Positions 18,901-58,767 of a stretch of DNA of 64,000 nt are shown here, in pieces (position 1 is the first letter of the stretch; each line of letters opens with the position of its first letter). The position numbers were made by a program, and so were the translations under genes. The stretch is from contig BDGG01000011.1 of assembly GCA_001949185.1 (NCBI GenBank), positions 327,016 to 391,015 on the forward strand. Direction: 5' to 3'. The notes below the pieces were generated by a model. It ran no database searches, had not been told where the DNA came from, and worked only from the letters and a program-made list of their open reading frames with translations. Source of the stretch: Ramazzottius varieornatus (Eukaryota > Animalia > Tardigrada).

Positions 18901-20399
18901 GGCATAGATTTCCTGAACCCGAACAACAGAGAGAAAAATCTGGTTTGAGTTAATCAAACACGAAAGTGCTCGCCACGAATTGGCTTTGCTGAATCATGGT
19001 ATGGCACATTCGTCCTGTGATACAGAGCTCGCGGAATCGAACCTTGGGCAGTCGCGCTTTTCTCGAATCATGTAGTACTGTAGTGGTCCCGTAACCCGTG
19101 TGCAATATCGCAGTCGGTGTCGGGCTATGATCCCCTTGCTTCAACATTACCGTCTAACACATATCCGAAAAGTTTTTTCACTTTTTTGTACCTTCGAGGC
19201 TTCGACTCGAATAGCAACTCCGAATGCATCAGTACGTATCGTGACTGTCTTCCATTTTCTCACCCCGCCCAACCGATCCATACGGAACTCAGACCGAATA
19301 TCTCCGAGCCCAACACATCGTGACTCGTCGACCAACCTCTTCCTGCGTTCCCGCCACAGCCAGCTGATCTGGGTTTACCGCCAGAAGGCGACCGAGAAAG
19401 TGGGCAAAGCTTCAACCGTTCTGATTTCTGCGAGAAATAATGGTAGGAGCCAATATGCACCCACCGCATTCACAACCTGTTTCTACTTTCGTTGTCACAT
19501 ACGACTACCTAAACCGATGCTGCAACTGATTGTCTACCCAAGTGGGAGCACGTTTCTAGCTTTGTTAGCTAGAAGCGTGCGCCACTTTGAAAAATAATCC
19601 TGACGAGTGGGTTATTTACCCCAATTGGCGCATTTTCGCTGTTGATTCGTGACAGCGTCGTATGTCGTTCGCTATCTCGGCAGCCACGTGCTGACCCGTC
19701 TTTCTGGGTATCCTTGGTGAGTGAGGTTTTCATCTCTCGCTGTCTGTTGCGCTTAACTCAACCGTCTCGATATTTCGCTTTCTCAGACCTTTAGCTTTTT
19801 TTTTCCATCGCCGCTTTTTTCGTGTTGATGGAAGTAGTATCAGTAAGGATTCTTCCGTTAGAAACATCCAAACGCGAACGTTTTTCCCGACGTTTGTTTT
19901 GAAGAGCACTGCCGAGCAAGTTCTTGCGGAGCTCCCAAGCAACGACCGAAACCACCGACCCGCATGTCATTATATTTGTGATTTCTAGCCAGCTGCTGGT
20001 ACGAGGTAAAGGACATGGAGTCTTCCAGTGAGAATTTCAGACATGAAATTTTCCAGGTTGTTTTAACGTAGCTGCTGGTCAGATTGCGTCGTACGGTAAG
20101 TCAGTCAATAGAGAAAGTCTTTCTGATCATAGCCAAGCCGTTTTCCGAGTCATTTGACGGTGCAAAGGTGACAAAGGAAGGTTTGTAGGAGACAGGATAA
20201 AATCCAATGTTAAGGAGCCTGGAAAAGAAATAAAACGTAGGCCTGAAGAGGCGCTTGCGTAGTCTTTTACGGAGACATACGCCAAGACGTCGCACCTCAT
20301 ATTCCAGTCTGTAAAACGTCACGTGACAAACAGTCAGATATTGTGATGCCACCCCACACCGCAGTTTGGAAATTTTAATTAATCAGCCGGACATTTAAA

Positions 20400-20680
20400 T
20401 TAATCAGCCGGACATCGATTGTTAGCGCATTTTATGTTCAAGATAACCCCAATCGTGGAAAAACTGACGAGTATTTCGGAGATTTCCGACTCTTCTTCCA
20501 GCGTGAAGGTGTTTGAACGTCCGACCGTCCTCCCGTGTTTCCTGTTCACTCTGTTCGCGAGGGTCCTGTAAGGTATATGATACTTCTCGGCAGCCATCCC
20601 TATGAACATTCTACCATTACAGCAGTTACTGCAGCTTCCATGCTAGGATGAGCCTGTACATATCGCCGTTTCCTAGGCAT
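20400..20680 (-). pseudogene. Frameshifted psq/CENP-B-type helix-turn-helix (pogo-like transposase N-terminus) fragment
   Basis: Reads MPRKRRYVQAHPSMEAAVTAV / IGMAAEKYHIPYRTLANRVNRKHGRTVGRSNTFTLEEESEISEIL. It ends at a tandem duplication of AATTAATCAGCCGGACAT (20377-20394, 20398-20415). Confidence 0.7.
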
Positions 20681-20699
20681 CTCAGAGGGTCGCAGGTAA

Positions 20700-21200
20700 G
20701 CAGGGACAGAAGGGTCGCCTTCGGAAGTCGCAGCTCTTGTTATAGAACGGCATGGATCTGTCATACAACGTAAACATTGACGGTGAAAGAACGAGAAGAA
20801 GGAAAGCCTTCCAGCAAGGAATAACGCAAAGAAGGATTGCGTAAACAATGCATTTTCGCTCTGAAGTGGTGCAAAGTTTTAGCCGTTCAGATTTTGAACA
20901 AAGGAGGTTGTGTTACGTCATTGTAAACCTTGGGCACACCTTCAGAGACATGTGATTGCTACTCGGTTGGCCCATAAGTGGTTTACTTGGTCCGGAATGG
21001 TGTGCCCTCTGCAGAAGCGGGTTCCTTGATATCGAACGAAATTCCTAAACGACTTCCACTGGTGAATTCCTCCCGTCATCGTCTTCCAATTGCTCCCCTT
21101 CTTACCAGATGAAAAAGGAAGCTAGATGTTCATAGATACTTGTAACTAATTTCAGGTTTTTAGGTTATTGCGGAAACCGTCAATGGGTCAAGTATTCGCC
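20700..21200 (+). repeat. Diverged dispersed repeat homologous to 50210-50730
   Basis: Shared collinear blocks, e.g. TTTTCGCT(C)TGAAGTGG..AAAGTTTTAGC.GTTC.GAT, GTGTTACGTCAT, TACTTGG.CCGG, CCCTCTGCAGAA and TGGGT.AAGTATTC. Confidence 0.7.
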
Positions 21201-21981
21201 CGTCTATATATACTGGAAAAAAGTGGTATGTTGGTTCCATCAAAGTATTCCACCACGGAAACCGTGAAAGCCTTCCTGAACCTCGGAACTTTTTTACCGT
21301 GTCCCCTAATGATTTCGGGTTGTTGTTTGGTCTTCCTGATGTTCATCGAGATTCCCGAGTCAGTTCGAGCAAGTACCCCACAGTGGGCTAGAGCCCCTGA
21401 AAATTCCCCACTCACATGACCTATGGCACCTAACAAAGCCTCTGCTATGGCTTGTCCCATTGACCAACGTCGAGCTCTTCAGCCGCCTGCAAATATGAAT
21501 TGAGTCTACAGTACATAAGTATTTCGTTTGATGGTTTGATGGGAGTACGGAATACGGTTGTGCAGTTTCCAAGATGCTGCTACTTTGAGTTACCGTACTA
21601 TTCCCGGTGGTGGACCAGCATTCCCTCTGGTATGCTCAGTACGGGATACAAGTACGGAACAGTATAGGTGACCATGTTTCCCTGGTTGCAGCTCGGTCTG
21701 GACCAGTGATGACTGTTGAGTGTAATAGCTGGTCAGCTCGAATTCGATCCGCTAACCAGCAGTCCTTTTTGTGCGCTACGTTGCATGGCACAGACATGGA
21801 TCGTTTGAATGCACGGTCAACGAAACTTGTTCAACAACAGTACGTTGCCAAGAAAAATTCGGAGTAGCTTCAAAAGCAAAAGTAGACTTGACAAAGTTTA
21901 GTTGACTGGCCTCCGATCTTGAGGAAAACAACTTTTACTGACGGGCGCTTTTTATCCTTAGCATTCACATCAGGTTTTAGC

Positions 21982-22946
21982 ATGGATGATTTCGATATCG
22001 TGGACTTTGGTAACACGTGGGACTTACCCCTAACGGAAAGTTTTTTCGACTCACTTATTGACACCTATCAGCATACAGAACTTACTGAGGTCTATCATGA
22101 CGAGGTCCATAGATTACTGGATGCTCCCTTTTTTGATCCGGGTGCAACCTATTTGGACATCAGCAGCAGTTATCTTGACGCCAACAGTATGCACTTCGAG
22201 CAGTCAGGAGTTACTACGAACCCTCAACAGAATGTGACTGGGATGGACCTTGAGCTTTCGGTCAATGAGCTCGGCCTGATGATCGGCACTATTGGAGTCT
22301 TAAACGCTCACGAGGAGTACGACGAAGGAGTCCTGATTCAAACACCGCCATCTCAGTTATCCGAGACCATGTGCCGACCATTCAGCAGCAGCTCAAAGAC
22401 TTACCACCATTTCCCGTGCCGTCCAATATTGCCTCGCTTCAGGGTTCGATACCCTTTATAATACAAAGTGAAACTCAGCAAGAGCCGCAGTCTAACCAAT
22501 CAGTTCGAACAAGACACTTGAAGAACGAAGCAAAGAAGCCACGAGCCAAATCCCTCAACACGCCGTATCATGATCTCCCCATTACCACTGTCACTACTGT
22601 ACCAATGGGATGGGAAATTGTTTCTGCTATGAATACCTTAGCTGAGTTCCTGCTACCAAATACCCAGATGTGCACTGTGGGTTCCGCCCACTTTACACCG
22701 TTGGCGGGTGCGAGTATTCGAGTCAAAGGTGCTCCAAAGACAAAAGTCACCGTTCTCCTTACCTACCAGGAACTTCTCATGATCGTCAACCTGATCTTGT
22801 CCAGAGAAGTTGATTCAGGAATTTTTCGTACTGGATCTGGAATAATCAGAAAGAAGTCCGTACCAAGCATGGATGATGAGCGACACTACGTCATTAATTC
22901 CACCCTTTGCTGCCATTGGATGTTAAATACTAACAATCACCCTTAG
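21982..22946 (+). pseudogene. Orphan ORF of about 320 codons (acidic/aromatic N-terminus, basic centre), with one frameshift near 22370
   Basis: ORFs 21982-22461 and 22371-22946 overlap and join by a single frameshift. The stop overlaps the convergent IAP gene. Confidence 0.5.
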
Positions 22947-23618
22947 CAAGTTGGTAAGAGCATGAAAACTGATGGAAAACTGAGTTTAGTGCACCGCCTT
23001 CGATACGTGTCGGTTTGCCGCAGTAAGCACAGTGAACATGGTTGACTTCTTATGAGGAAAAGATGAGTCCATCTTGAGCCAAATCTAGTGCTGTGTGCCT
23101 CTTTGGTAACTGACACAGTGGATTCTGAAGTGTGCGGAGTCGCTTTTCCACAGTTTCAGAACCGAGGGCCAAAATGTTTGCCGTCACTTTGTGGTCAGCT
23201 TTCTTTGCTCTGCGCCACCTCAAGAAATCATTAGGATCGTATGCTTCGAAAACCACTCCCAAACGTTTCATGAAGTTCAACCATGATAGGTACTGATTGA
23301 ACGTTGGTCGGCCGTCGATGTTTAGGAAATCGTCTTCTTTTGTCAGTTCAACTCCGTACTCCGTTGCAGATTGATCGACCATCTTCTGCCCGCACTTGAA
23401 TTTTACAAATTCGAATCCTGGCCGGTGGCGAATGTGTTCAATCATCGGTGTGTCAGTTGTCTGCCAGTAACTAAGAGCAAGTCCGCAATGAAAGCACTCC
23501 ACCAGTCCCGTGCTATGCTCCTTGCAGAAAAATCCCGCGCTGGCTAATTCATAAGGCTGCTGGACGTCAAACTTACCCAGTTGTAGAAGGTTACGAACCG
23601 AGTTTCGTGGTTAGTCAT
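22930..23618 (-). pseudogene. Inhibitor-of-apoptosis-like gene with two BIR domains (decayed)
   Basis: BIR1 reads ETRFVTFYNW/..PYELASAGFF..VECFHCGLALSYWQTTDTPMIEHIRHRPG(F)EFVK, with a frameshift near 23575 and the last Cys replaced by Phe. BIR2-like reads EKRLRTL..ALDLAQDGLIFSS*EVNHVHCAYC..FHQFSC, with an internal stop at 23050. Confidence 0.8.
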
Positions 23619-23888
23619 TGGTTTGTAAACGATTGCATCACTCCAGAACCCTTCGTCGTTAGGTCTCATGTTCGGAACAAAACACAAGCGAAAAATTCAA
23701 GACTGGCTCACTTTCGTCCGACGGGTAGAACTGATCAATTCGTGCTGATGGGTACTAGAAAACTGTTGTCGCTTGTGATGGACTGCAAGTGCCACTTACG
23801 GTCCTGTATCTGTTTTACGGTTCACTAGATTACTGTCACGCCCAATACAGTCATTTTGCTTCTTAGCAGCCATGTTACAGTCGCAATT

Positions 23889-24970
23889 ATGGGAACTACC
23901 GTAGTTCTTGATTGTGATTGGTTTATAATTGGGAAGCAAGCTTCGCTCAAAGTTTTGTCTTATGCAGTAGTTAGCGGTACCCTGCACGGCGACATAACGT
24001 TCAAGCTGCCGCAAACTGCCGCTCGATTTGGCGCAGACCTCGCCAGACAACCGCTGCATTCACACGGTCTAGTCTGGTCATCAGAAGGGCAGTTTCAGCA
24101 GCACCCACTTCCAGAAATCTTCGTGTATCTGTTCAATCAAGTCATAAAGAAACGACCAATCGAGATCGAGTTCTACGCTAAAGGCTAGTGCTGGGATAAA
24201 TACGATATGATATTCTCTGATAAATATCTTTCAATATTTATATCTCGTTTTAGATATCAACCACGTATCGATATTTCGATATGATACGTTTCTGATACAT
24301 TTTATTTTTGATTTATCGAATTTTATTACAGTGATTTATCGATATATCAAGCCAGTACCATGTTGAAAACTATCGAAATCAAGAAAGTTCCAAAGTGAAA
24401 CCAAACGGTTGTCGCTCACTACGTTCGAGTCAGAACAAAGTCAAATGTCTTCGTGTACGCGTGTGTTCGTTGCTCATTCTATCAAGATCTGTCGTTACGC
24501 ACCTAGGTACGCTGACTGTTCACTTCTCCGAAGTCAGCTTGGAAGCATGTGCGCGATACATTACGGGCGAGGCTGCGCTGCCTGCGCGGTACCGAACCGG
24601 AGTATTGACTTCCGAAGTTCCGATTCTCAAGTGCGGGTTTGCGATTTATCTATATCAGAAATATATCGATATACCGCGATATGATATTTTCATTTATCAT
24701 ATTCCGCTCAGCGATATTCCGTCCATACCGACATGTCAATATGATATTTTTGTCATATCGAATCACTGTGATGTGATATATTTCGATAAGATACGATATA
24801 TCATATTTATCTTAGCACCACTAAAGGCATACAAAAGTGCCGCTTGCTAGAGTCGTGGTTACATACTGTATATAATCTGGAAGATCTAGGCTGTCCTCGT
24901 TTTGACCAGCTGACAGACAAACCGTAGACCACTTTGAACAAAGCTGTGGTCTTTGGGTCATCGTTAACTA
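23889..24970 (+). pseudogene. DEDD-like exonuclease of the type accessory to Mavericks, interrupted by a hAT MITE
   Basis: Reads MGTTVVLDCDWF..LKVLS..HSHGLVWSSEG..FYAKG. After removing 24186-24828 it continues in frame as IQKCRLLESWL..NLEDLGCPRFDQL, with an in-frame TAG at 24925. Confidence 0.65.
24186..24820. mobile_element. hAT-type MITE, 635 bp
   Basis: Perfect 8-bp TSD CTAAAGGC (24178-24185, 24821-24828). Imperfect TIR TAGTGCTGGGATAAATACGATAT / rc TGGTGCTAAGATAAATATGATAT. Many subterminal CGATAT motifs. Confidence 0.9.
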
Positions 24971-25475
24971 CCCACAGATCCGGAACATCGGCGCGACCTG
25001 CCAGCTAGGATGCAAGTTAGATCTGGATAAAATTGAAGTCAGATTGCCTATGGCTCTTTATACTCCTAAGCGATTTTCTGGGATATCAGTCCGTATCCTG
25101 CAGCCATATAAAGCACACTGTCAACTCTATACTGACGGAAAGATGACAGTCAACGGAGCACGAACGCTGCGCTCTGCGAAACGACTGGCTCGACGATTCT
25201 GCTCGCTTTTGAGAACACTGGACTACGACGTCTCGGTTTCCGACTTTCGAGTGGTCAATATAATTACATTTTTTGACACAGGTCGAAGACCACGTTTGGA
25301 AGAACTCTCCCAGAGAACGAACGCCATGTATTTTCCTGAAATTTTCCCAGGTTTACGGGTTAGACTGAGTGGGTGCAGTGCAATATTATTTCACAGCGGC
25401 AAAGTTAAATTTTTGGGCGCCAGAAACAAACTGGATGTTGACGCTGCGTATTTGGAGCTGTTACTTCATTTATGA
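24960..25475 (+). CDS. Divergent intronless TATA-binding-protein (TBP) homologue, core domain only; the natural start appears mutated (ATC at 24960)
   Basis: The frame is open from 24960: YPQIRNIGATCQLGCKLDLDKI..YTPKRFSGISVRI..QLYTDGKMTVNGART..ARRF..DFRVVNII..RLEEL..YFPEIFPGLRVR..ILFHSGKVKFLGAR. This is collinear with both TBP repeats (PQLQNIVSTVNLGCKLDL, YNPKRF, IFSSGKMVCTGAK, FKIQNMV, YEPELFPGL, IFVSGKVVLTGAK). Confidence 0.9.
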   Translation: MVNYPQIRNIGATCQLGCKLDLDKIEVRLPMALYTPKRFSGISVRILQPYKAHCQLYTDGKMTVNGARTLRSAKRLARRFCSLLRTLDYDVSVSDFRVVNIITFFDTGRRPRLEELSQRTNAMYFPEIFPGLRVRLSGCSAILFHSGKVKFLGARNKLDVDAAYLELLLHL

Positions 25476-28400
25476 ACAGTAGCTGTACGGCTTTGTATTA
25501 TATTCTTCATCTACGATAACACGCTTGTCATAAGTAAATTGACACCGTTTGTTCTGAACAGAAACTTGATGCAACTCCAGATGTTTCTTATTCCGTCGTA
25601 TAAGATCCGTATACGGAACAACTACAACGTCTTTTTCCTTCAGCATTCGTAGCACTGAATCGAGGTTGACCAGTTGTGATGCTTCTCCTTTCAGTGCGAA
25701 GCCCTTCATCTTGACCAAGGATTTATCAACGTTCGTCACGTAGGCGTATGACTTGGGTCCCACGGTGGCAAAACGTGTAATATGCTGCTCCGGTTTAATT
25801 CACTGGATAAGTCACCTAAAAAGTTTTACACCGGTGAATCAGTGTCCCCTTCCCGACTGACAAATATTATGGAATCCGTATTTAAACACCGAAATAGCTT
25901 ACTGCTGTACGTAATATTCGGACGACACACAGAAATTTGTATCTGGTTAATTACCGATATACGGTACGCGGTTTGCGCGTGAACCTTCCACTTAATCCAT
26001 ATACTTAAGTGGCAGTAATCGAGCGTAGCAAGTAGTGAACGCAGCTACAACTACGTTAACGGTGGCGTTAGGTTCCGCAAACCCGTCGGCAGACTTGTAC
26101 GACAACTGTACAGTATTGTCGTTGATGAGGCCCCGTGACGTGACCGTACTTTCGCCCGACAACATTCTCTGCCAAAACTTTCCGGGTTCCGTGAAGAACT
26201 CGGTGTTCGCGCGATTTTCTTGCATACCGAATCGCCCCCAGAAACTGTTGAGGTGCAACTTCGCCAGTGTGCGGAGACCGGGATTGGAGACAATGTTGTC
26301 TGCCTTAAGCGTGATACCCTTGTGTTCTTCAAAGTCTCGTACGTACTGCACTTTCTTTTCATCGGTGTCACCGTCGTCAGGGTATCCGCTAGCCTCCGTT
26401 TTGATTTTATAAAACAGATCAATGTATGGTCGGAATAGCCTTTCTTTGACTTCCTCCCAGTGGTATACCTCACGCACTTTGAAGACCGTGTAGCCATGAT
26501 CGACTGCTGCACGAAGCTCTGGTGTACACCATGTGCCCCGTAACGCGCGCTGGTCGTCACAATGCAAACAAGGATCTTTCTTTTGGGATTCGGCTCAAGA
26601 TCGACACAGCGGGACATCTCTTTTTCCTTTACATCTCACGGGTACTACAGGAATGTGCAACTGTTTTGGGGTGAGCATCTCGCACTTAACGAGACCGAAG
26701 TAATTGGACAAACCGTGAAAGTTTTTGGTAACACTTTGATGGTGGCCAAACGGATAGCGACATGTTTTGTTTACCCAGGGGTACTCAGAAATGACATCCA
26801 AATTGCGGATTTTTTCGTCAGGTGTAACGGAGTGGTACAGTTTCAGTCGATTATTCCGCCCGCCGTAGAACGCATCTCGCGGCACTAGCGGTTCTGTCGG
26901 CTGATATGACTTGACAAAAGCTCGCAAGTCACCATCTTACGGTTTATCTTCGGTAAACTGACACTCCCAGCAAGTAACGACTCCATATCCCTCTTGTTCC
27001 AAAAACCGCTCGCGTGCCTTCGTGTCTTCAAAAACTTCTTTCATGGTTTGCTTCCGGTACGGATGAGTAGCTCCCGGGTAATAGCATTTATGACATCCAT
27101 GATAAAAGCATCTGGTCAGTGGCTTCGCAGAACCCGTCCACGTAGAACGATCCGATCTTTCTTTCCTGGCCGTTGAAACGATGTTCGATATCGATGTTGC
27201 GCGTTCGGGCCACCGACTCCATCCATTGAACAGCTACGACAGACTGCAGGCGGTTCAAGCCGTGATGCGACATCACGCCGATCTGTTTTTCTTCCACAAA
27301 CTTTGTACGCCAGAAAACGTTACACACCCCAGCAATGGTAGCAGCGGAAACAAACGGACATGAACCATCAGTAATGTCCATCTATAACTGACGGAATTGT
27401 TGGCAACACAACCGCAGCACTGTGACGTCCATTCGACAACACGCGTACATTTCTTGCTCAACATGATACCGTCCGTTCTTCTCACCTGATCTTTATTGTA
27501 CCATTCTAGGAACGATGCCCTCTCTCGTTCGCGTATCTTCGAATAGTCAAAGTCGGCTAGTCCAGGATAGTCAATGCCGTCGGGAAGATTCCAGTTTCGC
27601 GAACAATTTAGCTTGTGAGGAAAAGATCCTTTACTAATTCATTGCAGTCTAAAAGTGGCTGGCCATTTGGCTAGAGACTGTGGGTCATAGTAGTGAGTCT
27701 CTAAAACAAATACGATACTTTTCGATATCCATTCGAATGATCTTGTTTCCATTCATGATGAGTTTAAGCATGATTCCGTTATCGATAAGCCACTTCAGAA
27801 CAAAATATCCATCAAAGGCCCGAAAGTTGTGGGCTATGACGTAAAACCCCTTATGTTTTGGCTGAAATATGTAGTTGCAGAGGTCGTCTGATGTCTCTTC
27901 CAAACGGCTCGCCTTCTTCAGGGAACACCGTTTCCTTTCCTTAATCATCCTGGATTGCGGCCATATTAGGGACCAGTACACCCGACTCACTCACATACGT
28001 TCCAAAATCCAAGAACAAAAGGCGAGCGCTTTTGTGGCGCTGTCTGTCCTTATCCGAAAAACGTAACTTTTTCATGTAGCACTTGTGATCCGGCAATTGG
28101 TACGATCCGCAGTATGACAATATGGATCGTTTCATCCGTGTTCATTTCCCGGTGTACGATTCCGATCGTTGATCGTCTTGTAACATTCCTTACATCGATG
28201 GATATAGCTGCACGGGGCATGCCAATTGTTTGGTCCTGCTTTGCCTTCTGACTTGTGGTGGTCGTAGCAGTCTTGTCCGAGGAATACTCTGTTGCAATCG
28301 GGACACGGTATTTCAGGGTCTTCGTCACATGGGCATTGGTGACGTAGGCACAACGGACAGCGATATTCGCACCGATGGTCATGTAGACCGTTGTAACCCT

Positions 28401-29384
28401 TGTCACATTTGTGGAACCCTGAAACATCAGACTACAGATGGTTGTATACAGTAGGCCACGCTGAGTGCATACTCACAGTAGCTTTTCTGAAAAAAACCAG
28501 TGAGTGACATAGCACGTCATAATGGTTACCGTGATGGTAGAGTGGAATTCGGTTCTCGGCTTCAGGACCTTTCTCGACAAAGCTGTCTAAATGATTGGCA
28601 CTGCACACGTTAATTTGGGTGCCGGCAGCACCTAAGGAGGAGTAACTGTTCTAACTGTAGGTGTAGTGCATACGATCCAACACTCCGAAAAATTTCGTAC
28701 CGCTTCGAAGGCAGGAATGTCGGCGATCGAGTAGACTCTGACAGCTAGACCAGCTTCTTCAATGAGTTGTAAAGCCTTGGACTTTTGATGCACAGTGCGC
28801 TTGTCGCAGAGCTTTTTGTATTCTGTGCGGTTTCCTTCGGAATGTGCTATCCCAACGACGATTGCACGAGCCATACAGATTTCGTTGCAGTTATCAATAG
28901 TCACAATGCTCATACTGCGTTTTAAACGCTTTTTCAAGCGACGTGGTATTTTGCCAGAGCCTGCTTCGAATAGCGGTGTTGCGTAGCTGACAATAATATT
29001 GAAAGAATCATCGAACTTGGATTCTTCTTGAGAGTTTAGAACCGTCTGTACCTCGAGCATCCATCGGTCCACGGTCAAGTCGAACTTGAGTACAGGAGGT
29101 GTCCAGATTGGTATCTCCAAAGAACGAGTTTCAATACGTAACCCAACCAAATCCTGATCCGAAACGTTCGCTTGCACAACGTCTAGTATGTGTTGCAGTA
29201 TAGAAAGCATAGTTGCAACGGCATCTTCAAAGCTCACTTCTTGCATATTCCGTATACTGACTTTGTACCGATCGAATGTGAGTCCATAGCGTTTACAAAA
29301 CGATCATCATCCAAAGTTATCGGTATGCTCGCAAGGCCCACTGCAGCCAAATTCTGGCGACTTGGTTACATCAGTTGAAAGCAT
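25470..29384 (-). pseudogene. Protein-primed family B DNA polymerase (Maverick/Polinton type), fragmented, with three introns
   Basis: In order: N-terminal region (NEICMARAIV), Cys-rich module, ExoI LFLDF(G)T, ExoII AHNFRAFDGYF, RDS, KGSFPH, ExoIII CCRMDV, Vsr-like insert FYVDG..HGC..WECQF, RDAFYGGR, motif A DVISEYP, motif B KLHLNSFWGRFG, motif C YI-DTDS, GPKSYAY, KMKGF, YDKR. Many stops and frameshifts. Confidence 0.93.
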
Positions 29385-29602
29385 GGTGTAATGTATGTGT
29401 TATATAATTTTGGCCTGTAGCTTAGCATTCTGTGCCGTGAATGTCTATCAGGTCTTTATTTGAAACCAGAAAATCTGGAGTACATTTCGAGTGAGCGGGC
29501 TTGAATAGTCAACACTCAACAGGACTACGAGGACTGAAAAGTGAACTTCTTCGCCAGTGAATTCATACCGAACCTCTGACAGTCAATAGCTGTCTTCGAT
29601 AA

Positions 29603-32155
29603 TTAGCAGTGCATTCGGTCCGCTGTGTAGGTCTTTGCGGGATACGCCCCTCCGTATGACTGAAAAGATGGATCATCATTAACCTGACATCAAAGCCCAA
29701 ACTTGGGGCAGTAATCGAACGCTCACATCGAAGCTGGAGCCGAGCGACAGTCCGTCTCCCGCAACAATCACGTGTGATCCACTTGCGTCTTCTCCAAAGA
29801 GCAGCAAAAGAGGACTGTCGGGATCGTTGACGCTCTGGATAGCCGTCACTTTGACCATGGGATCAAGTTCTTTGGTCAGTGTGGAGCACAACGGTTGGTT
29901 GGCCTGTGTGGGTTGACCGGTGTAGCTGATACAAAGTTGCTTGGACGCTTCAAACACAACACCAGATTCGAGGTTAACAATGCTAAGACTCATAAAATAA
30001 GTGATGTTTTGTTTTTTATTTATTACAGTTATGGTAGACTATAAACTGGTCCTTGGTCAGCACTGTAGTTGTTGAGTCGGGCGGGAAAGAAGTTGATAAG
30101 GTTCCTGCCAAAGGAGGTGTTGACCAGGTGGCCTGGTAACAGGGCGTGGCTGGCTGGTTTGGTGGATAGCTGCAGGCAGCGGCTTTCGTCGGCTGAAATT
30201 ATCTGGTGTGTGAACACTCAGTGAACCCTCACAAAACAATTCTGGTTTACAAAAAGGGCACGTACGTCGGCCGAGTTGGAGAGGAAGGTCGGGCCATTGT
30301 TACTGGCGACGAAAGCAAAATTAATTGGCAAGGTCTGACCTAGGGAGTCGTATCTCGGGAAGAGTACCGAGAGATCAACGGGGTTGGCTGTTTGACCTGT
30401 GGCCAGAGCGGGGTCGACGGTCGCCACCGTTTGACCCGGGTCATCTGGAGCTGCTTTCTTACCCATGGTGTATGTCATTGCACAGTTTCCTGCGGTAGAA
30501 AAATCCTGAATTTCTGTAAATTCCTTCCCAGTGCTACTGCTCAAGTATTGAAGTTTGATTGAAGGTTTCGGTGCGCATTGTCGATTGTATGCTTCAGTTT
30601 TCGGTACCGTTTATCAGGACGTAAACATCTTGTTCCCTTGTCGCACCAGCTTCGTACAACAAGGAAGCCGTGGGAGCCTTCTTGCAAAAAGTGGAAAAGT
30701 CACCATCGGTACAAGTGCTCTTGACGAAGGGAGGAGCGGTCGTACCAGCGGTCGTTGTGGCCGTCGCTGCTGTTATACCGCTTGGACATGCCGTTGGGGT
30801 ATTGCCTTGAGTATTGGCGGTTACTCCCGTCGTGGAAGCCGCTGTGGTCGACCCGAGAGTTGGGGTGGCAGTCGCAGGTGTGACCGTTGTAGTTGTGTTC
30901 ACTTGCGCGGCGCAGTCCACTGGGAACAATCGATGGCACCGTACACCACTTCGTCTGGATGACAGAACGGAGAAAAGCGCTTACGTGGGTCACATTTCTT
31001 TCGATCACAGCTGGTGGGGTACATCAGACTAATCAACTGGCAGTCACTGTTGCTGAGTCTGTCAAGCGCTGGTACGAAGAAGGGAGCTTTCTTGACCGTG
31101 AAAGCCTGCTGACCAGGTTTGGCCATGTCGGTGGAACGACTGTGGGTGATGGAGCAGTAGTCATACGGAAAGGCAGCCCAATAGGCTTCTTGGGCTGAAT
31201 AAATCCTGTACGCTGTTCCACTGTAGGCATCTTCAGAGCAATTCATCAGATAAATATTCACCAGACAATCAAAATCAATTTTTGCAACAGACCATTTCTA
31301 GAGTTTCACGTGACGGTCGATCTTACTTGCAGCTAAGGCGTCCTGCTTGACGTCAATGTAATCACCGCGATCGCCGCGTTGATGCTCGTTGCGTTTCCCA
31401 ATAGTGACAACAACGAACCTGCAAAACGAATACAGGCATTACTCCATCAAAACACCTACCTCTTGTTCCTTCCAATAGCGTGAGCTACAACTCACTTCAT
31501 CAAGTCACGCAATTTGCCGGTAAAACAGCCGGTTGGACCGCGAGCGAGAACCACACGTTGTTCTGTCTTGCCTGAGACTTGCAGGTCTTTGTAGAAGCCT
31601 GGGTAGGAGTAGCAGTATGGCTCGGCTGTTGTTCTAGGAACAAAAAGAACAGCATCCGGCACTCTTGGACGTGATTGCGACTTGCAAGAACATCGTCCTC
31701 CTACCCGTCATCCGCAAAGGGTGTGATCTTTACTTTATAAGACGGATCCGTGGGAAAAACTTCGGCAAACCCAATGCATGACTTCATATCGGCCACCACC
31801 TTGGCAATAGCAGCTTTGATCTGCGTCCTCTCGTCGGCAGCTACAGTGGAAAGAAGTGTACAGACTCAAACCAGGCAGTTTGGATGAATTGACGATTGGT
31901 GTTCTCAGTTGAGGAACGGGCACATACTGTAAGCAGCGTCGAGATAGTAAGGAATGGCGGTTGGATAAGGCCATCGAAGAAATTGGGCTTGGATGTTGAT
32001 GGTGGCATCTAATCGAACAGAGTAGCATAATGGCGCTGAGAGATCTCTGTCGTGAGAACAGCATACGACCAGTAACAATTGTTTACAGGATGTATCTTAC
32101 AGGTACAAGAGACGGCCAGAAGAAGCAAGGAGAGGGAGAGTAATCCCGCAATCAT
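29603..32155 (-). CDS. Secreted astacin-fold protein lacking catalytic residues, with a Thr-rich linker and C-terminal domain (multi-exon)
   Basis: Signal peptide MIAGLLSLSLLLLAVSC. Astacin landmarks: RWPYPTAIPYYLD, IKAAI..SCIGF, CYSYPG, GC, G..NEHQRGDRGDYI, PYDYCSITH, LSNSDCQLISLMY..C. The last exon ends RMHC* at 29603. Confidence 0.8.
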
Positions 32156-32926
32156 CCTGACGGCGTTTTTTTGCTGGAATAACCACTTGACCGAAAAAAG
32201 GTGCAACACTGACGTCCCACGGATTGTCGACTGACTATTCGAGGTTTGTACGAGTTAGCATGTAAACGGGAGAACCGATCTCATTCGGTGGCGTGCCTTG
32301 TGAGCAAGGTCAGCGAAATTAGCAGGGTCTTTACCGTATGGCTGATTTTGCTTTGCCGCAAAGTTTATCTGTTCGAATCAAAACGACAATCTGTTCTTCT
32401 TAGGCTACGTGAGCCCGAAACAGTTCTTTGCATTTCAGGAAGAATGATGCTTCAAATTAAATGTAAACGGTCTTGCATAAGCCTTGGCCGGCTGTACATC
32501 CTCGGATAGCAATCAAAGTAGATTTTTGTTCGCGCCTGCATGTGATAAGCTGTTATGATACTTTTAGGCGAAGACTGCTCTCTTCGGGTTCCTTCAAGTG
32601 ATCGATGGTAACTACAGTAGAGCTACGCACATCGTTGCATGGTTCATGCTGCGGAATGCGGATCCCTGCACAGATGAATGGGCTACTTCAACATGCGCAT
32701 TACAGCCAATCTTCTTCACTCAACGTACGAAATTATTATGGGTCCTAAAGAAATCTCTCCGTTCCTAGTTTCGGAGCCCGTCTGTAGCCGTCAACTCTGT
32801 TGCATGCGGGCAACAGCTTTAGGCAACACTTCTGCCGGCCGCTGCAGCGCATGGGAGTTCTAACTTCCTAATCCCGCAGTAGCATCCAGGATTTGTCTTC
32901 TGACAAGTTATACAGCTCAAACTGTA

Positions 32927-33124
32927 CACGCAGGACGAGAAATTATGGTACAGTAAATATTATGGGACAGGCCTTTTCGCTACGGCGGTACGGGAGCACG
33001 TACGTACGCGACAGATTTTACAGTAATACATTTTGCGACGCTTTTCTACGGCCGAATTTCCATGTTGTCGTCCTTTCCGCCTGTACCATAATTTTTACTG
33101 TACCGTAATTTCTCGTCCTGCGTG
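32927..33124. mobile_element. MITE, about 200 bp, with about 45-bp TIRs
   Basis: CACGCAGGACGAGAAATTATGGTACAGTAAATATTATGGGACAGGC matches the reverse complement of the right end with 3 mismatches. TA lies on the left flank and TC on the right. Confidence 0.85.
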
Positions 33125-33483
33125 TCGAGAAAACCCGCCTATCTTCCTGCAATATCGGTTTAAGCATCATGATGTAACGGTTGGCGCAATCCCCTTGTGA
33201 GCATATTCTCAGTTACAGGCTCGTCTGTGACCATGACACAGCAGCAAATCTCGGTTTGGTTTTTCCAGAATAGAATCCAGAATTTTGATACGACACTGTG
33301 CGTACTGACAGAGAAACTATTGTGAAGTAAGCCTGGATATCGTAGTTACAATAGGTTAGTTGCAGTCGGTACCAATTACCAAACTGCAGATGGGGTGCAT
33401 AACCTATGTGCCCATAAACTAGTCAAAAAACTGCAACTGCAGGAATGCATTCCTACGTTGTATTCCCACGTACTGACAGTGCC

Positions 33484-36400
33484 TTAATGCCCAGACGCCA
33501 TGTTGTAGTTGCCGAAAATGTCCTCGTGATAGCGGTCCGTGCTCTACAGAACAAAGGATACGATGATTGCTGTGAAGAGTTTACGGCAGAATTGCGCCCA
33601 CATTTCATTACCCGCAAGTGGTTCATGAGGTGCTGCGTTTGGACGGCGGTGAAGCCTCCAGCCTCAAAAGCTTGCCGAATGGCATTATACACACCAGCTG
33701 CCATTCCCACATCTCCACAGACGTAGATATGCGCTTCCCGCACACGCACATCCGGCAACAGCGTTGCCGCAATTTTCGGTATGATATCCTGCACGTACGT
33801 CTAGAAACGAGAACAACCGATGCCCAGAAGATTTTCCCAACAGGAATCTTCAACGTACCTTTGGGACGTTCGCTTGTCGAGACAGAGCCAAGTGAAAACT
33901 TGTCAAAACGCCGTCTCGCTGCAGCTGGTCGATTTCCGCTTGGTAGATATGGTCTAGCTCAGAGTTGCGACAGCCGAAAATGAGGTGGGCTTCCACATTG
34001 TCAGCCCGGTGGCTGGCACGCAGCTTTTCAAAGTGCTGCCAGAAGGAGCGGAAAGGCGCGATACCCGTACCCGCGCCGATCATATAGATGGGCACGGTCA
34101 TTTTTTCCGGCAACCGAAACGTCGACGCCCTGCAATATTCTATCTTTAAAGATGTGAGCGTGAAAATCAAAAAACACCTCTGTGTTACGTACGTTCGAAT
34201 GTAGTAGTGGACAGGGCTGTCCAGTTTGCGCTGGCTCAAGAAGGCGGTACAGACGCCATTGTGGACAGGTCCGGTGCCGTTCTGGGTTCGGTAGGAGATT
34301 AACCCGACAGTGGCGTCGATGACTTTGGGGTTGGTCAATGGTGAGGAACTGATGGAGTAGAAGCGCGGCTGCAGCTGAGGCAGCTCGATCAACAATAACG
34401 TCGCATCCACTTCCACCGATTGGAATTCCTCCAGGACTTCTAACAGTGTCGGCCACTTGAACGTTTTCCATGCTTCGTACTCCTCGGTGTTCTATATTAG
34501 TCCGACGGTACAACTACTCATCGGGCAAGGTTAGCTTGACAATTTTCCTATAGGCGCACCTTGGAAAGTTGAAGAAGCCTGTCGTGCTCTTCGGAGCTTC
34601 TAGCTAGTGAAGCCAAGCTTTCCAGTAGCATTTGCGAGGGTGGAGTGGTGATGTCCAAGAAGGAGGCGAAGAGGACTTCCATGGGCGCCACTGGTAAACG
34701 CACCAGTGCTTTCCAGGACTTGGTCACCGCTACAAAAAACCAGCGCTGACTGACACGAACGCCACATTGTTATTGAACCGTGAAGGAAATTACCCACCCA
34801 TTCCGGAGGCTTTCTCGACCAGCACTTCCACCTGGATCGGTGCCTGGTTGGGTCGCATACCCAGACGGTCCAGCAATGCCGCCACCTGCTGTGGATCATT
34901 TTCGGCAAAGATGGCCACGTGGTCGCCGGGCTGGTACGAAATGTCCTCCTCGCTCTCCAGCTGCACCAAGATGGTCTGTCGCGTCGACTGCTTGCTTTGC
35001 AAGTTGCGCCGACTGAGCAACTTGCACTGCTGCACGTTTTTATTGTATGTCCCACTCAAGGCTACAGCAACAGTATGCCAATTGATCAAGCGATACTGTT
35101 ACTGTTGAGCTTTTTTTTATATTGAGTACCTGTCTGCAGATCTTCGCTGACGGCGGCAGCGTTGGCCCGCAAGCGGTAACGACCCTTGGACCACGAGCTG
35201 TCACCATTGGACAGCGCAGCTTGGGCGTCGACCATGTTGACGTCATCGCCGAGACAGAAGACGTCGCAGGCTACTTTGAAGACCTCGTGGGCCCACAGCT
35301 TGAAGGACTGATCTTGCCCGCGAAGCTCGTCGCCAGTGTGTATGGGCAGGATACACTCGCCACCCAGAGCGCTGAGCGACTGGTCGACGTAGTGAGCGAA
35401 CGCGCAAAAGTGGGGATACGAACTGGAGCCCAGGCCAAAGACGGCGTAGCGCACGTTACTCAACGGACCACCTAAAAATAACCGGACGAATGTCTGTACA
35501 AACTCGGTGCCTTTCGGTATGGAAAATCGGTTTGACGGACACTACACTGACCTGTGTCCATAAAGTTATCTTGGTCAGCAAAGGTGGTCTGCCGGGAGAA
35601 ACTGCCTTCAACACTGCGCGTGTCCATCCGAATATACGATTGGGATTTCTTCCTGTGGAAATACACTCCCAACGTGACTGGGAAGTTCACCAAGTATTAC
35701 TCGCGAATTTGTTTGTTAGTCTTACCCTGAGATGTCATCCGGACAGGAGAGCTGGTGCAAGTAGGCCGCGATCTCCTTGCCATTGTCCGGCGGGTCGCCG
35801 TTGCCGAAGGTACTGGTAACGACCAGCAGCAGTGCTTCGTGCTCGAGGTGGGCCAAGTCGTAGTGTTCCGCACAGACCACGTTGACGTCGAAGCCGTACT
35901 TGAAGACGTCAAAGAGCGTTTTGGCGTACCGCTCCGACTTACCCGTTTCTGTCGCGTAGATGATGGTGGCACGAATGCGACGAGCCAGCGCCTTTGCCAT
36001 CAACTTGGCCGAGAACTTCACCGCTCTAAAGACTCCCACAAATTAATGTAACTTCTTGGGAAAATTCAAACCAACTTATGCGAAGTTTCCATTTTCTTCG
36101 TTGGTTTTACCGCGCGATTTCTCGAAAGCCAAATTTCCGCTTTGGGTTAGATTTTTGCGCCGTCAACTTGACCTTGTCCTTTTTCCACACGTGCGCTTTC
36201 CATGCTTCGTCCTATAGGGAATATCACGTAATACAGAGATTGACAACAGTCTACTGTCCAGATGAGCATTTACCGGGTGCCCAGTCGCAATTTTCATAAA
36301 CTTTCGCACTCGATATCGGTTGTCCCTGCTAACGAAATGCTCCGCTATCATGGGTTATTAATAAACCTTTCTCCCTCCACTGTACCAATAACAGATGGAC

Positions 36401-39400
36401 ACTTGATCAATGCGAAGAGTACCTCGCCACGAAAAAGTGATTCTTTAAGGGAAGGCAAACTCGCTCATTTTTCAACGGCCATCTTTCCTTTACTGTACCT
36501 CGCAATGGAAAACCTTTTACTCGTGTCCTTGACTGGGTATAGCTAATCAAAAATTGCAACAGTTGTTTTTTCGAGACAAACTTCAATTAAGGATGCCCAT
36601 TCCGCCTGACTTGCTTACTGGAACGGAATTCGGATCCGAATTCCGTTCCGTTCCTATCTTCCGTTGTCCAGAACGGCTAGACAAAAAATCGGAATCCCAA
36701 TACGGCAGTTCAAAAACCAGTCGCAAGCTCGGTTTAGCCCCGTCTCTCAGTAAGATCGTGTCCAAGTGGCGCACGAAGCTGACCAGTTATACTGACAATG
36801 TGCGCCACTTAGAGATCAATTTTGTCGAGGTTGTTTGCCGTGCTTCTATGTAGTGAGCAAAGATGACACCAGAACTCGACACTTGGCGCAAAAAGTGGGA
36901 CTTTCGCCGTGGAAAACCGGATTCTGACAAGAGGAATTCTTTGTCCTTGAATTTCGATTCGGAATTCCAGCGTTCCAAGTCGTCCTCAGCCCGAACGCTG
37001 CGGAATTCCGATTGTCCAGGCGGAATTAGGAATGGAACGGAAAAAGGAACGGGCATATTTAACTTCGACAACATTGTGAGTTACTCATGTGACGGCGACC
37101 TCACTGAATGCTTGCCGGCGAACTAGACCTCAAAGGAAGGCACAATTCTCTCTTCCGCCTTTGCAATTGTTTTTGCCACATCTTTGACTGGCGTTTACGA
37201 TTAGTCGGCTTTTCGTAGGAGGAAGCATTTTGTGAAAATTACGAATAACCACCCGGTAATCTTTTCCTCGAATGCCAACCAGTGTCTCACAATAAAACAC
37301 CAGAAAAGCCTTCCGTCAATTCAATGACTACACGTTACCTTTGATTACAAAACTCTAGACTAGTGTCGCAAAAATGTCACTTTACGCGTCGTACCTTCGT
37401 TATCGAAGGTTGATCAGTTCAGACTTAATGGTGTCTTTTGAGTTTAGATTATAGTTGTACTCTTAGTGGAAATGTTTTTCTGTGTGGGGGAAAAAGTACC
37501 TGATAATCGTAGCAGGGGGATAGTCTATAGTCCAGCATTTCCTGGTGGTAAACCGAGACTAAACTGCCCCCCATCGGCGGCACAATCCACACCTGCAAGG
37601 TTGAAGATGAGTACATAGGCAAATGCCTTCCGTTGTTTACACTTTTCCGTGAAAGTTGTTCGACCTACCCAATCAGCCGGACATCCGCCGCGCGCTTTCT
37701 GATAAAGGAAAGCAATAGTTATCAATACAACTAATCATTCACTCCTTAGTCTGGAAAACTGCCGCTTACCTGTTCGTTCTCCAGGTGCTTCATGAAGGAC
37801 TCCGAAGCGGAGTGATGGTCGACAATTGTGACGTTGACAGACTGAAAGCTACTGAGGATAGCCTTGTTTAGCTCTAAGAAGGTCTGGTCTTTCCATAAGG
37901 AGGAGGCGCGACTTGTGTCGAACTCAAAAACGTTGGCTATGTCCTACCGACAGGCAACATCATTCGCTCTCAGCCCTCCTTCCAAATCCAAAAATTCAAA
38001 GCTTTGAAAAATCACACTGACTTCTAACAAGTTGTAACGAGTCGGATCGACGAAATCCCTCGCAATTTCCGTTTGCATGTACCAGCCTACGAGTAACCAC
38101 GCTACAGCTTCAAATCTGTTCTCGTCTCTTGACTGCATATCATGCTGTGAAATTTATTTCGTTTACCGCTAAAAGCGACAGCGGGGAAGAATACTCCGCC
38201 GACGTCGAAGACCATATTGGCCACAGCGGGTAGTGCGTACCATTTCAATCCCATTTCGGCCAAGCCCGGGTACCTGAAATTTCAGGTTTTAATAACTGTC
38301 GCAAATTTTGAAAGATATAAGACCTGCTTTGACTTACTCTGCATGATGTATGGCCACTTGAAGAACAATATCCCGAGGGATGTCAAAGTATTCAGGATCT
38401 TGCCCAGCGGCTGACAGAACTAGTGGAAGCACGTCAAAGCGACCACCGGAACCCTTCCATCCCAACTTGTGACACACCTTGATATCGAAGAAGAGGTGGA
38501 AGTTTTGTTGGATTGTCAGCTTGATGTTCTATACAATGGAGGGAAATTACTTCGGTAAGCTCGACGGAAGCAGGGTCGCCAATGACGCTGCCGTCTTCCT
38601 GTTTGTATCCCGCATAGCGGACCAGCTGGGCGTTCCAAATGCGAAAGTCCTGCTCAGGTGTAGTCCGTTGCTTGAAAATGGTAATTGCTGAACGGAGGTT
38701 ACCGCGGTTGGTGGAGTACTTGATGTGGTTTAGCAGAGCCTCAAACATGGTGCGGGGCGTATTGATAAACCGAGCGTCAAAGACCTTCGAATCGATCATT
38801 GCTAGTTACTCCCATCAAAAGCGTTGTAAACTCAGAGAAAAAATAGTAGTAAAATTAACCCGGCTTGGTACTGTAACAGAAAAATACCTGTAGTTTTGAC
38901 CATTGAATTCGACCGATACATCGTTGTGAATTGCGCCATGCTGATTTTGCGGCAAAGGTCAGTTCCTGCTCCTTGAATTCGTAGTTACCCGTGGCGTGGA
39001 TCTGGGCTTCCACTTCGGCCCAGCGCGCATCGTGAGCCGGTGTGTTCAACCTACAAACACAATTTGTCAGTCTACCCTAGTAACCCCACAGGGTGGCACT
39101 ACTCGAAGAACTGTACCGTTTAGCGGACTCAAAATATTGCCGAATGAAATCCTTGGCCAACAGCAACACTTCCTCAGTCGATCGCGCAAGCGAATTCTGT
39201 GGTCGCGACAAGTTTAACAGCGACGCGGTGCAACGATTTGCGGTACAACCAACACTCTGTACAGAAACCATATGACAAGAAAGAATCAAACTATCAATAC
39301 GACAATCATTTATGATAATCTAATGACTAATTTCGAACAAGTTTTCAGTAATTGTTAAAGTGGTTATTATGGAAGTTTAATGTACAAGTGAAAACGGTAG

Positions 39401-55800: not shown

Positions 55801-56233
55801 GATACCGTTGAAGTGCGTTAGCCCAACACCAAAACCGAGTCAGAATGGGACACAATTGTATAGGCGTGGACCCCTTGGAAAGGGACTAACTGGAAACTAA
55901 AATCACCCCATGTTAGGTCATGACCAGAACTCAAGGTGAAACCGGAAACAAAGTACTCTCCGACAACGGGATAAACTGCCTTAACACCTGCAGCACCACG
56001 TGTTTTATGTCAAAATTGAACCATGGGGTGCGAAACGATCCCAGAGTTTCTGACTGGTTTAGAAACGAGCGCCACCGTCCCTTGACCAATAGCAACGTCC
56101 CCATTCTAACCGGCGCATGACACCATGTGTAGTAATCATTTAATCCACCACTTCATCGGGGAAACACAGGACAGAAGAACAAACAGCCTCCCCAAGTTTA
56201 CTAATACGAGTGAAACTATTCTTCTCACACTCA

Positions 56234-58580: not shown

Positions 58581-58767
58581 TCAGAACAGATTACTTGTGG
58601 TGCAATTCACAGACAGGGATATCGAATGTACTGCAGTAAAGCAGGAGGATAAACCAGGACAGATTTTAAACGGGATGGGGCGTGAATGACGCTTTCAACG
58701 TACTAGAAAAAACACGATCTGAAGGCCAGTTAGATTCCGAGCATTGTGAAATACAGCTCTGAAGTTT

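Follow-up and report, generated by a model that had tools for sequence, protein, structure and literature searches.

A decayed Maverick/polinton segment in a tardigrade genome and its lineage, with a conserved TBP gene and a candidate late promoter box

Genes of the tardigrade segment

The segment lies in a 64-kb window (the whole stretch of DNA that was analysed) and holds an orphan ORF, an IAP-like remnant, an exonuclease-like (exo-like) gene, a gene for a TATA-binding protein (TBP) and one for a protein-primed DNA polymerase B (pPolB) (Table 1). The five ORFs claimed in a preliminary description at 21982..29384 are real, as are both overlaps at their stops, where the orphan stop (22944-46) meets the IAP end (22930) and the TBP stop (25473-75) meets that of pPolB (25470-72). 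Pfam matches in the window are BIR (23053-23610, minus strand, E 6.6e-12), TBP as two repeats (24906-25472, plus strand, E 2e-30) and DNA_pol_B_2 as three pieces inside 25995-27990 (minus strand).

Table 1. Features of the segment, in window positions
Feature	Position	Strand	Remarks
Orphan ORF	21982..22946	+	acidic N-terminal third; frame change near 22400-22470
IAP-like remnant	22930..23610	-	two BIR stretches, internal stop, no in-frame ATG before first BIR
Exo-like gene, 5′ half	23889..24185	+	60% identical to residues 1-99 of P0192 (intact relative)
MITE, 635 bp, high-copy in host	24186..24820		short terminal inverted repeats, 8-bp target duplication
Exo-like gene, 3′ half	24823..25008	+	66% identical to residues 98-162 of P0192; one internal stop
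Maverick TBP	24960..25475	+	two-lobed core of about 170 aa, without N-terminal extension
pPolB	25470..29303	-	Pfam PF03175; 6 frame changes, several stops

The orphan ORF, of which residues 1-120 are 20% D/E, is an uncertain part of the element. Its frame change corresponds to a 53-nt intron (22416-22468) in the public annotation, which one contig of run X12 crosses unspliced. A single homologue was found among 91 candidates, its own annotated protein; there was no Pfam match, no usable Atlas match, no similarity to the ORF upstream of the exo-like gene in the related contig L003, and none of the LxCxE, CR1 and CxxC motifs that were sought.

An end of the exo-like gene at 24188 is rejected, because the MITE, missed in the preliminary description, splits the gene, which runs to about 25008, its tail overlapping the 5′ end of TBP. 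The MITE is flanked by the target duplication 24178-24185 / 24821-24828, has a summed contig depth of 459-579 against about 24 on both sides, and from the 8-bp duplication is presumably hAT-like. The 3′ half gives a profile match of E 1.3e-12. Modelled on the orthologue in the related contig L001 (pLDDT 91.6), the protein has an RNase H-like DEDD/DnaQ/Maelstrom fold that matches RNase AS, RNase T, ERI3 and Maelstrom (E 8e-4 to 2e-2, TM 0.4-0.6); among viral matches of the fold, the second best (E 7e-8) is to a protein of Drosophila-associated adintovirus 2. The first acidic pair, D/E-x-D, is conserved among 27 homologues, in which the C-terminal motif shows no invariant acidic residue or His nearby. 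The earlier name of exonuclease is apt for the fold only, and enzymatic activity is putative.

The pPolB gene is collinear by tblastn with that of the related contig L002 (28-52% identity), and also with L001, over about 3.8 kb. The homology extends only to 29291, and an ATG at 29384 is a candidate start. An intron-like insert of about 80 nt lies at the catalytic motif, and from its Cys/His motifs we take the N-terminal region to be OTU-like. The pPolB genes of L001 and L002 have short GT-AG introns, which suggests that Pol II transcribes them in the nucleus; intact vertebrate Mavericks, by contrast, are said to lack introns in the passages available.

The preliminary description held all genes to be similarly decayed, but the form of decay differs from gene to gene: pPolB carries frame changes and stops, whereas TBP is free of stops and frameshifts but has no ATG where its homologues start. 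These breaks are unlikely to be assembly errors: contigs of DNA run X1, possibly the source of the assembly, show 0 differences from the element, and so do the pieces listed for a second sample (X4, X5). A contig of run X23 departs from the window sequence at 29387. Presumed RNA runs X8, X12 and X14, all of one study, give low-depth contigs over 21689-23340, and X16 and X23 give none; the missing cover of TBP and most of pPolB in these runs was not counted as evidence.

Integrase, packaging ATPase, adenain protease and capsids are absent from the window (tblastn with L001 proteins, best E 0.19). No inverted match longer than 11 nt was found between 20900-22100 and 29200-30100, and another search for terminal inverted repeats was likewise empty. 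The preliminary description proposed looking for intact copies with terminal repeats, capsid, ATPase and integrase; copy number was judged from the contigs of run X1, which contain no further copy at ≥80% identity. The segment is a decayed replication end of a Maverick/polinton lineage that has its own conserved TBP; we file the copy as a remnant of that lineage and not as a complete Maverick. With broken genes and no structural block, the copy most likely does nothing today.

A conserved TBP gene in related Maverick contigs

The TBP of the window is 59-64% identical to members of its family, most of which are about 170-180 aa, and 66% identical in an alignment with P0001, and about 30-35% identical to cellular TBP. 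Among 39 conserved columns, it departs from the consensus at 6, whereas the two relatives nearest to it each do so at only 1 of 38. Pfam and the model (pLDDT 89) agree that the two repeats form a saddle, with Z 22.4 and rmsd 1.6 over 170 residues against human TBP and rmsd 1.6-2.6 against PDB 5fur_A, 7o4i_O and 1mp9_B; the best viral matches of the fold are NCLDV TBPs, at 9-18% identity. In a tree built without KSHV ORF24, it falls, with support 100/91, into a clade of 38 rows, of which 37 belong to the family and one is a long branch; the canonical and archaeal rows lie outside this clade.

The gene block is recurrent. The order exo-like gene, TBP and, tail to tail, pPolB is found in the window and in three of four related Maverick contigs (L001-L003), so that the proposed test of whether TBP is repeatedly adjacent to pPolB has a positive outcome, with the reservation that L002 and L003 are near-copies of each other. 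The TBP and pPolB stops are ≤7 nt apart in all three. In the fourth contig, L004, TBP adjoins an ATPase-integrase block, as judged from ORF inspection and an ATPase alignment. Genomic context thus covers 5 of the 37 family rows; two of six loci, L005 and L006, are archaeal TBP pairs and were left out of the count. The related contigs are incomplete elements, in which neither TFIIB nor an RNA polymerase gene was identified. L001 carries an A32-like ATPase, an rve integrase, an adenain protease, PC4 and a pX-like motif on the same contig as the exo-like gene, TBP and pPolB. The capsids of L001, L003 and L004 are putative, assigned from position or order and size, with no Pfam, NCBIfam or PDB sequence match.

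The overlap of the exo-like gene with TBP is also visible at the protein level: in 9 of 27 exo-like homologues, the C-terminal tail is compatible with an overlapping frame that encodes a TBP N-terminus, with scores of 41-69 that none of 40 shuffles per homologue reached (highest shuffle score ≤34). Of the rest, 17 were uninformative and 1 borderline, and the test is blind to short tails, such as that of L002, whose overlap is visible in its DNA. Further relatives or controls were not found in viral contigs with TBP, pPolB, ATPase, putative capsid and exo-like queries, nor in genome contigs with TBP or in a phage collection with ATPase; a pPolB query of genome contigs gave two short loci. The single control, L007, is a pPolB end in which a profile search found no TBP or exo-like gene, and it lacks a capsid block.

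The IAP-like gene is a different case. Read with X at its stops, it matches Pfam BIR at E 3.5e-15 in two stretches, has no RING domain by Pfam, and scored 0.92-0.93 with Atlas BIR clusters. Its second BIR bears a weak likeness (E 0.036) to a BIR-like ORF of L001. At the corresponding position, L001 has a short unnamed ORF followed by a PC4 gene, and L002 and L003 have an ORF without a Pfam match, followed in L003 by a PC4 gene; elsewhere in L001 there are only weak BIR-like ORFs. The preliminary description had proposed a polinton-like lineage with both its own TBP and a distinctive anti-apoptosis module. The lineage with its own TBP stands; the module does not, there being no IAP at that position in L001-L003, and adintoviruses having already been reported with IAP homologues (PMC8502044, in part). 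IAP plus TBP as a conserved module is likewise rejected, since IAP is not kept alongside TBP in the relatives.

The DNA face of TBP and the TATTWAA box

Residues were counted in 36 members of the TBP family, in yeast numbering. The intercalating aromatics F99, F190 and F207 are kept in 36/36, position 116 being Y in 34/36, and so are the asparagines N159 (36/36) and N69 (31/36). The TATA-reading face is remodelled: T112H (35/36), L114Q (30/36), V122T (34/36), T124N (36/36), V213N (35/36) and T215L (35/36) replace all six of its positions in 30-36 of the 36 members, and Q158V is found in 36/36. These replacements, together with the separate clade, set the family apart from canonical cellular TBP. 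Among the glutamates that contact TFIIB, E188 is kept in 34/36 and the first one, E186, in only 13/36. The N-lobe surface residues E93 and R107, presumably contacts of TFIIA, are not kept.

Upstream of the structural genes lies a candidate box. TATTWAA occurs on the sense strand ≤200 nt from structural-block starts in 5 of 5 instances in L001 and 4 of 4 in L004, before packaging, integrase or putative capsid genes; these 200-nt intervals cover 6% of L001 and 13% of L004. It is the sole one of 448 AT-only patterns with at least three matches per locus, all inside the intervals, and the longer word TATTWAAR is observed 5 times against 1.5 expected in L001 and 4 against 0.68 in L004. Of the structural starts, only 4 of 8 (L001) and 4 of 7 (L004) carry the box, at a distance from the ATG that scatters from 26 to 196 nt; the words lie upstream of genes and not at contig ends. 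None precedes a TBP gene. One of two matches in L003 precedes the exo-like gene, L002 has none, and canonical TATA words stand before several non-structural genes. The P values of 7e-7 and 3e-4 are naive and err on the optimistic side, because the motif was chosen after the upstream list had been viewed, with a non-standard box already in mind, and start codons were assigned by the analyst. The evidence comes from two TBP-bearing contigs, L001 and L004, the window contributing none; since the box was counted in TBP-bearing loci only, it could be common to Mavericks in general and be recognised by a factor of the host.

A possible early-to-late switch

A reasonably likely interpretation of these sequence patterns is that the lineage's remodelled TBP serves as a late-gene switch, reading TATTWAA before the packaging, integrase and putative capsid genes. 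At first, ordinary TATA boxes would serve for transcription of the polymerase and accessory genes by the TBP and Pol II of the host; the element TBP would then bind TATTWAA, bend the DNA with its retained aromatic residues, and recruit host Pol II. TFIIB would be the probable route of this recruitment, given that position E188 is kept, and the residues used by N-lobe regulators would have been lost.

There are other scenarios for such a protein. The element TBP might generally stand in for host TBP or boost it, or might act as a decoy, binding the partners of host TBP and so dampening host transcription; TATTWAA would then be recognised by a different protein of the element or by one of the host. 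The near-identity of its fold to that of cellular TBP despite low sequence identity, the PC4-like genes near by in L001 and L003, which indicate that other transcription helpers exist, and the restriction of the TATTWAA comparison to TBP-bearing Mavericks would all suit such a role. Still, the family-specific changes that are most invariant sit on the DNA-reading face, E93 and R107 are lost, and a decoy would be expected to keep its partner surfaces rather than remodel its DNA face; we regard this scenario as unlikely. Less likely again is a non-transcriptional role on DNA, in which TBP and the linked exonuclease-fold protein might act together, for example by bending AT-rich termini or origins during protein-primed replication or packaging. 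It would explain why TBP is tightly linked to the exo-like gene and pPolB in 4 of 5 loci and why reading frames overlap there, but the TBP of L004 adjoins an ATPase instead, and the TATTWAA words have a sense-strand position upstream of genes. A decayed host TBP retrocopy that came by chance to lie beside a Maverick polymerase fragment can be rejected as extremely improbable. The window copy is indeed alone among the contigs of run X1 at ≥80% identity and has neither start codon nor terminal repeats; against this, the same gene block recurs in three other contigs, and the protein groups with its family, to which it is far closer than to cellular TBP (about 32% identity).

The proposed late-gene switch has a parallel in the TBP-like protein ORF24 of KSHV, which, in the part of PMC12529657 available, is described as reading TATTWAA and as having N at both T124 and V122, S at L114 and T at V213. 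The two proteins share the TBP fold, in which the four intercalating aromatics are kept along with N69 and N159, and both have polar substitutions at yeast positions 114, 122, 124 and 213, T124N being identical. The word before the structural genes of L001 and L004 is also that of the herpesvirus late box, and the one upstream of the L001 ATPase equals the K8.1 promoter core as quoted in the same source. The differences are considerable. ORF24, a multidomain protein of 752 aa, works within a viral complex of six proteins, is without the TFIIB-contact glutamates and makes direct contact with Pol II (PMC12529657, same part); the Maverick TBP is a bare core that resembles cellular TBP far more closely, retains E188, and is not known to have viral partners, none of the partner genes of the six-protein complex having been identified in L001. 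The Maverick TBP may therefore work like the herpesvirus late system, by analogy, but is not a member of it, and we infer that the likeness reflects convergence rather than descent, ORF24 being absent from the tree. On a broader view, to which we give an even chance, a widespread invertebrate Maverick lineage would have evolved a one-protein early-to-late switch independently of herpesviruses, built on a captured TBP core whose DNA face converged on the ORF24 substitutions and which would read the same box but depend on the TFIIB and Pol II of the host.

Other known systems differ in other ways. With Mavericks, Polintons and Alpha adintoviruses, the lineage shares a pfam03175-type pPolB and, in L001, the A32-like ATPase, rve integrase, adenain protease and pX-like motif; the conserved TBP gene and the TATTWAA box set it apart, and the window copy differs further in having neither terminal repeats nor structural block. 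Cellular TBP and TRF (PF00352) and NCLDV TBPs have the same two-lobed saddle, but the Maverick TBP forms a clade apart from the cellular rows, with a remodelled concave face and without an N-terminal extension. Several NCLDVs encode their own TFIIB (PMC7221094, in part), whereas none was identified in the related Maverick contigs.

The preliminary description knew of no report of such a combination, which is slightly too strong: "TBP" stands as a label in the Fig. 5 legend of Starrett 2021 (PMC8502044), in the available text only there, for MELD viruses in a non-animal section. Otherwise, the claim agrees with the literature covered, in which no text treats TBP as a routine Maverick gene; Repbase, subscription journals and part of the PMC8502044 supplement lie outside this scope. 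TBP and TATA terms are absent from the matched passages of PMC8097293, PMC10748475 and PMC11131425 (figures outside the scope) and of 10.1101/2022.07.12.499685, 10.64898/2026.10.13.758929 and 10.64898/2026.06.19.733378 (bioRxiv supplements outside the scope). Nothing on Maverick promoters was found in print.

Finally, we note that the matching promoter box, missed in the preliminary description, is the more interesting part of these findings. Maverick virions have not been observed, according to the available part of Barreat and Katzourakis 2021 (PMC8097293), and a late box with a matching element TBP offers a direct test of whether Mavericks run an early/late programme like true viruses. If the proposal is true, the pair would be a minimal orthogonal TBP-promoter system and sequence evidence for a timed, virus-like programme of Maverick expression. 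The parallel with ORF24, which extends to the box, to T124N and to four polar positions in all, would serve as a natural experiment in re-specifying a TBP saddle, and the Maverick protein, at about 170 aa, would be far easier to purify than ORF24, which is poorly amenable to purification (PMC12529657, in part). The window copy is a fossil record of this lineage in a tardigrade, and its value rests in the family to which it belongs.

Gene decay in the window copy

The window is animal DNA, and the Maverick copy within it is a fossil fragment. The five ORFs of the preliminary description are all present, as are its two stop overlaps. Contigs of sequencing run X1 (possibly the source of the assembly) show no differences from the element, and neither do those of a second sample (X4/X5), among the matches listed. 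In the run contigs, no extra contig at ≥80% identity lifted the depth over the TBP gene, so they give no sign of a close second copy. A high-copy MITE of 635 bp (24186-24820), flanked by an 8-bp target duplication, divides the exonuclease-like gene in two, and the halves correspond to residues 1-99 (60%) and 98-162 (66%) of one intact relative. The pPolB gene has six frame changes and several stops, and the IAP gene has two BIR stretches and one internal stop. The TBP frame is open, but the start codon is absent at the site where homologues begin; 6 of 39 conserved columns are altered, whereas the two closest relatives each differ at 1 of 38. Within the 64-kb window, we found no terminal repeats and no gene for ATPase, integrase, protease or capsid.

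Transposon debris bearing HTH_psq forms the left border of the remnant. On the right, a contig of run X23 tracks the window from about 29390 upward and has a loose end before 29387 (region 29387-29660); because of this loose end, the element's boundary could lie near 29387, and pPolB might not include the ATG at 29384. The window pPolB also holds an intron-like insert, placed differently from the introns of its relatives. The orphan ORF is identical to a database protein labelled Ramazzottius varieornatus (tardigrade). Low-depth, zero-difference contigs from three runs of one study, which we guess to be RNA, cover 21689-23340 over this gene, a faint indication that it is transcribed or belongs to the host.

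The rest of the window contains zinc-finger genes, astacin-like genes and DDE transposons. The PDZ and FAD/NAD-binding gene is likely nitric oxide synthase, a name that we infer. Short inverted repeats (39975/44704 and 47375-47422) lie near the three long ORFs.

Features of the window and of the compared contigs
Feature	Location	Strand	Remarks
Host gene, N-terminal PDZ ORF and FAD/NAD-binding exons	33450-41020	-	spliced joints in run contigs
Tc5/pogo-like DDE transposon	56230-58584		152-nt inverted arms, 95% complementary
Multi-copy transposon debris, HTH_psq fragment	19068-21200 and 49690-50740		related repeats about 30 kb downstream
Inverted-repeat element (MITE), 200 bp	32926-33125		very high-copy
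Three long ORFs (276, 195, 288 aa)	43109-45493	+	no convincing Pfam match
Two tandem TBP genes, archaeal-type contigs	L005 9410-10549; L006 7-1146		unrelated to element
Fic-domain gene	L002 5805-6644	+	head-to-head with pPolB; canonical TATA word in front
Maverick-type pPolB	L007 1-2070		contig titled bacterial MAG
pPolB introns, short GT-AG, about 40-70 nt	L001 11015-12340 and L002 2455-4420	-	

Gene order in related Mavericks

Searching with the TBP gave 18 proteins out of 226 candidates (41-66% identity, mostly about 170 aa), and a profile search of representatives gave about 20 further relatives. Of 295 stretches from a metagenome scan, 6 held up, namely the four Maverick contigs L001-L004 and two archaeal TBP loci. 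L001 carries, in order, BIR-like ORFs, an A32 ATPase, a pX-like gene, integrase, putative capsids, adenain, PC4, the exonuclease-like gene, TBP and an opposing pPolB. The last three genes recur as a block in L002 and L003, which are near-copies of each other, and the TBP and pPolB stops are at most 7 nt apart in all three contigs. The proposal that TBP repeatedly stands beside pPolB is thus borne out in L001-L003 but not in L004, where TBP adjoins, and is divergent from, an ATPase-integrase-putative capsid block. Among 27 exonuclease-like homologues, nine end in a tail compatible with the start of TBP in an overlapping frame, a fit reached by none of 40 shuffles in each case; one is borderline and 17 have tails too short to judge. 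The IAP gene had been counted as part of a distinctive module, a view we abandon: its position is not conserved, and IAPs are already in print for adintoviruses (excerpts of PMC8502044). The Fic-domain gene is possibly Maverick cargo. The L007 pPolB, which has no TBP downstream, is probably eukaryotic contamination.

The TBP reading face and TATTWAA words

The predicted TBP structure resembles human TBP (Z 22.4, rmsd 1.6 across 170 residues). The exonuclease-like protein has a predicted DnaQ/Maelstrom-type fold and a close adintovirus match; it is exonuclease-like by fold, its catalytic set not being clear-cut from homologue comparison. In an unrooted tree of 86 rows picked from 169 full-length cores, with no named viral TBPs among them, one side of a 100/91 branch holds 37 family rows and one long-branch row. 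The 36 family members compared (yeast numbering) retain the DNA-bending aromatics and both asparagines, and their DNA-reading face is altered almost invariantly (T112H 35, L114Q 30, V122T 34, T124N 36, Q158V 36, V213N 35, T215L 35). E188 is retained in 34 and E186 in 13; E93 and R107 are mostly lost. KSHV ORF24, a reader of TATTWAA, is polar at positions 114, 122, 124 and 213 (Table 1, in excerpts of PMC12529657), and the family shares its N at 124.

TATTWAA occurs five times in L001 and four times in L004, always on the sense strand and ≤200 nt from a structural-block start. It alone of 448 AT-only patterns behaves so in both, as a word picked post hoc after data inspection, with start codons assigned by us, and scored only in the TBP-bearing L001-L004. 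Scans of viral contigs, genome contigs and a phage collection yielded no TBP-less element with a capsid block to set beside them. The word precedes 4/8 structural starts in L001 and 4/7 in L004, at 26-196 nt. One of two words in L003 precedes the exonuclease-like gene, and L002 has none. As for the canonical TATAWAW, two of five words in L001 precede BIR-like ORFs; all three in L002 stand in front of pPolB, Fic and an unnamed ORF, the last also preceded by the only word in L003. The single L004 word has no start behind it. No TATTWAA box lies ahead of a gene in the window, because the structural block of this copy is gone.

A possible transcription programme

Early genes would be driven from ordinary TATA boxes by host TBP; the element's TBP would next bind TATTWAA, and there bring host Pol II to the packaging and capsid genes. 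We consider this programme probable, and infer its binding, timing and TFIIB use. The short pPolB introns of L001 and L002 fit nuclear Pol II transcription, and differ from intact vertebrate Mavericks, described as intronless (excerpts of PMC8097293). The element's TBP might instead be a booster or decoy, which we regard as unlikely, or serve replication or packaging, which seems more doubtful still. That it came to lie beside pPolB by chance is extremely improbable.

TBPs with a TATT box are already known in beta/gamma-herpesviruses (excerpts of PMC12529657), and NCLDVs are known to have TBPs (excerpts of PMC7221094). For Mavericks, the open-access text that was searched yielded nothing beyond a 'TBP' label in a figure legend on MELD viruses (excerpts of PMC8502044), and no description of their promoters. 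Set against described adintoviruses and Mavericks, the distinguishing features of this lineage are a conserved TBP gene and a candidate TATTWAA box.
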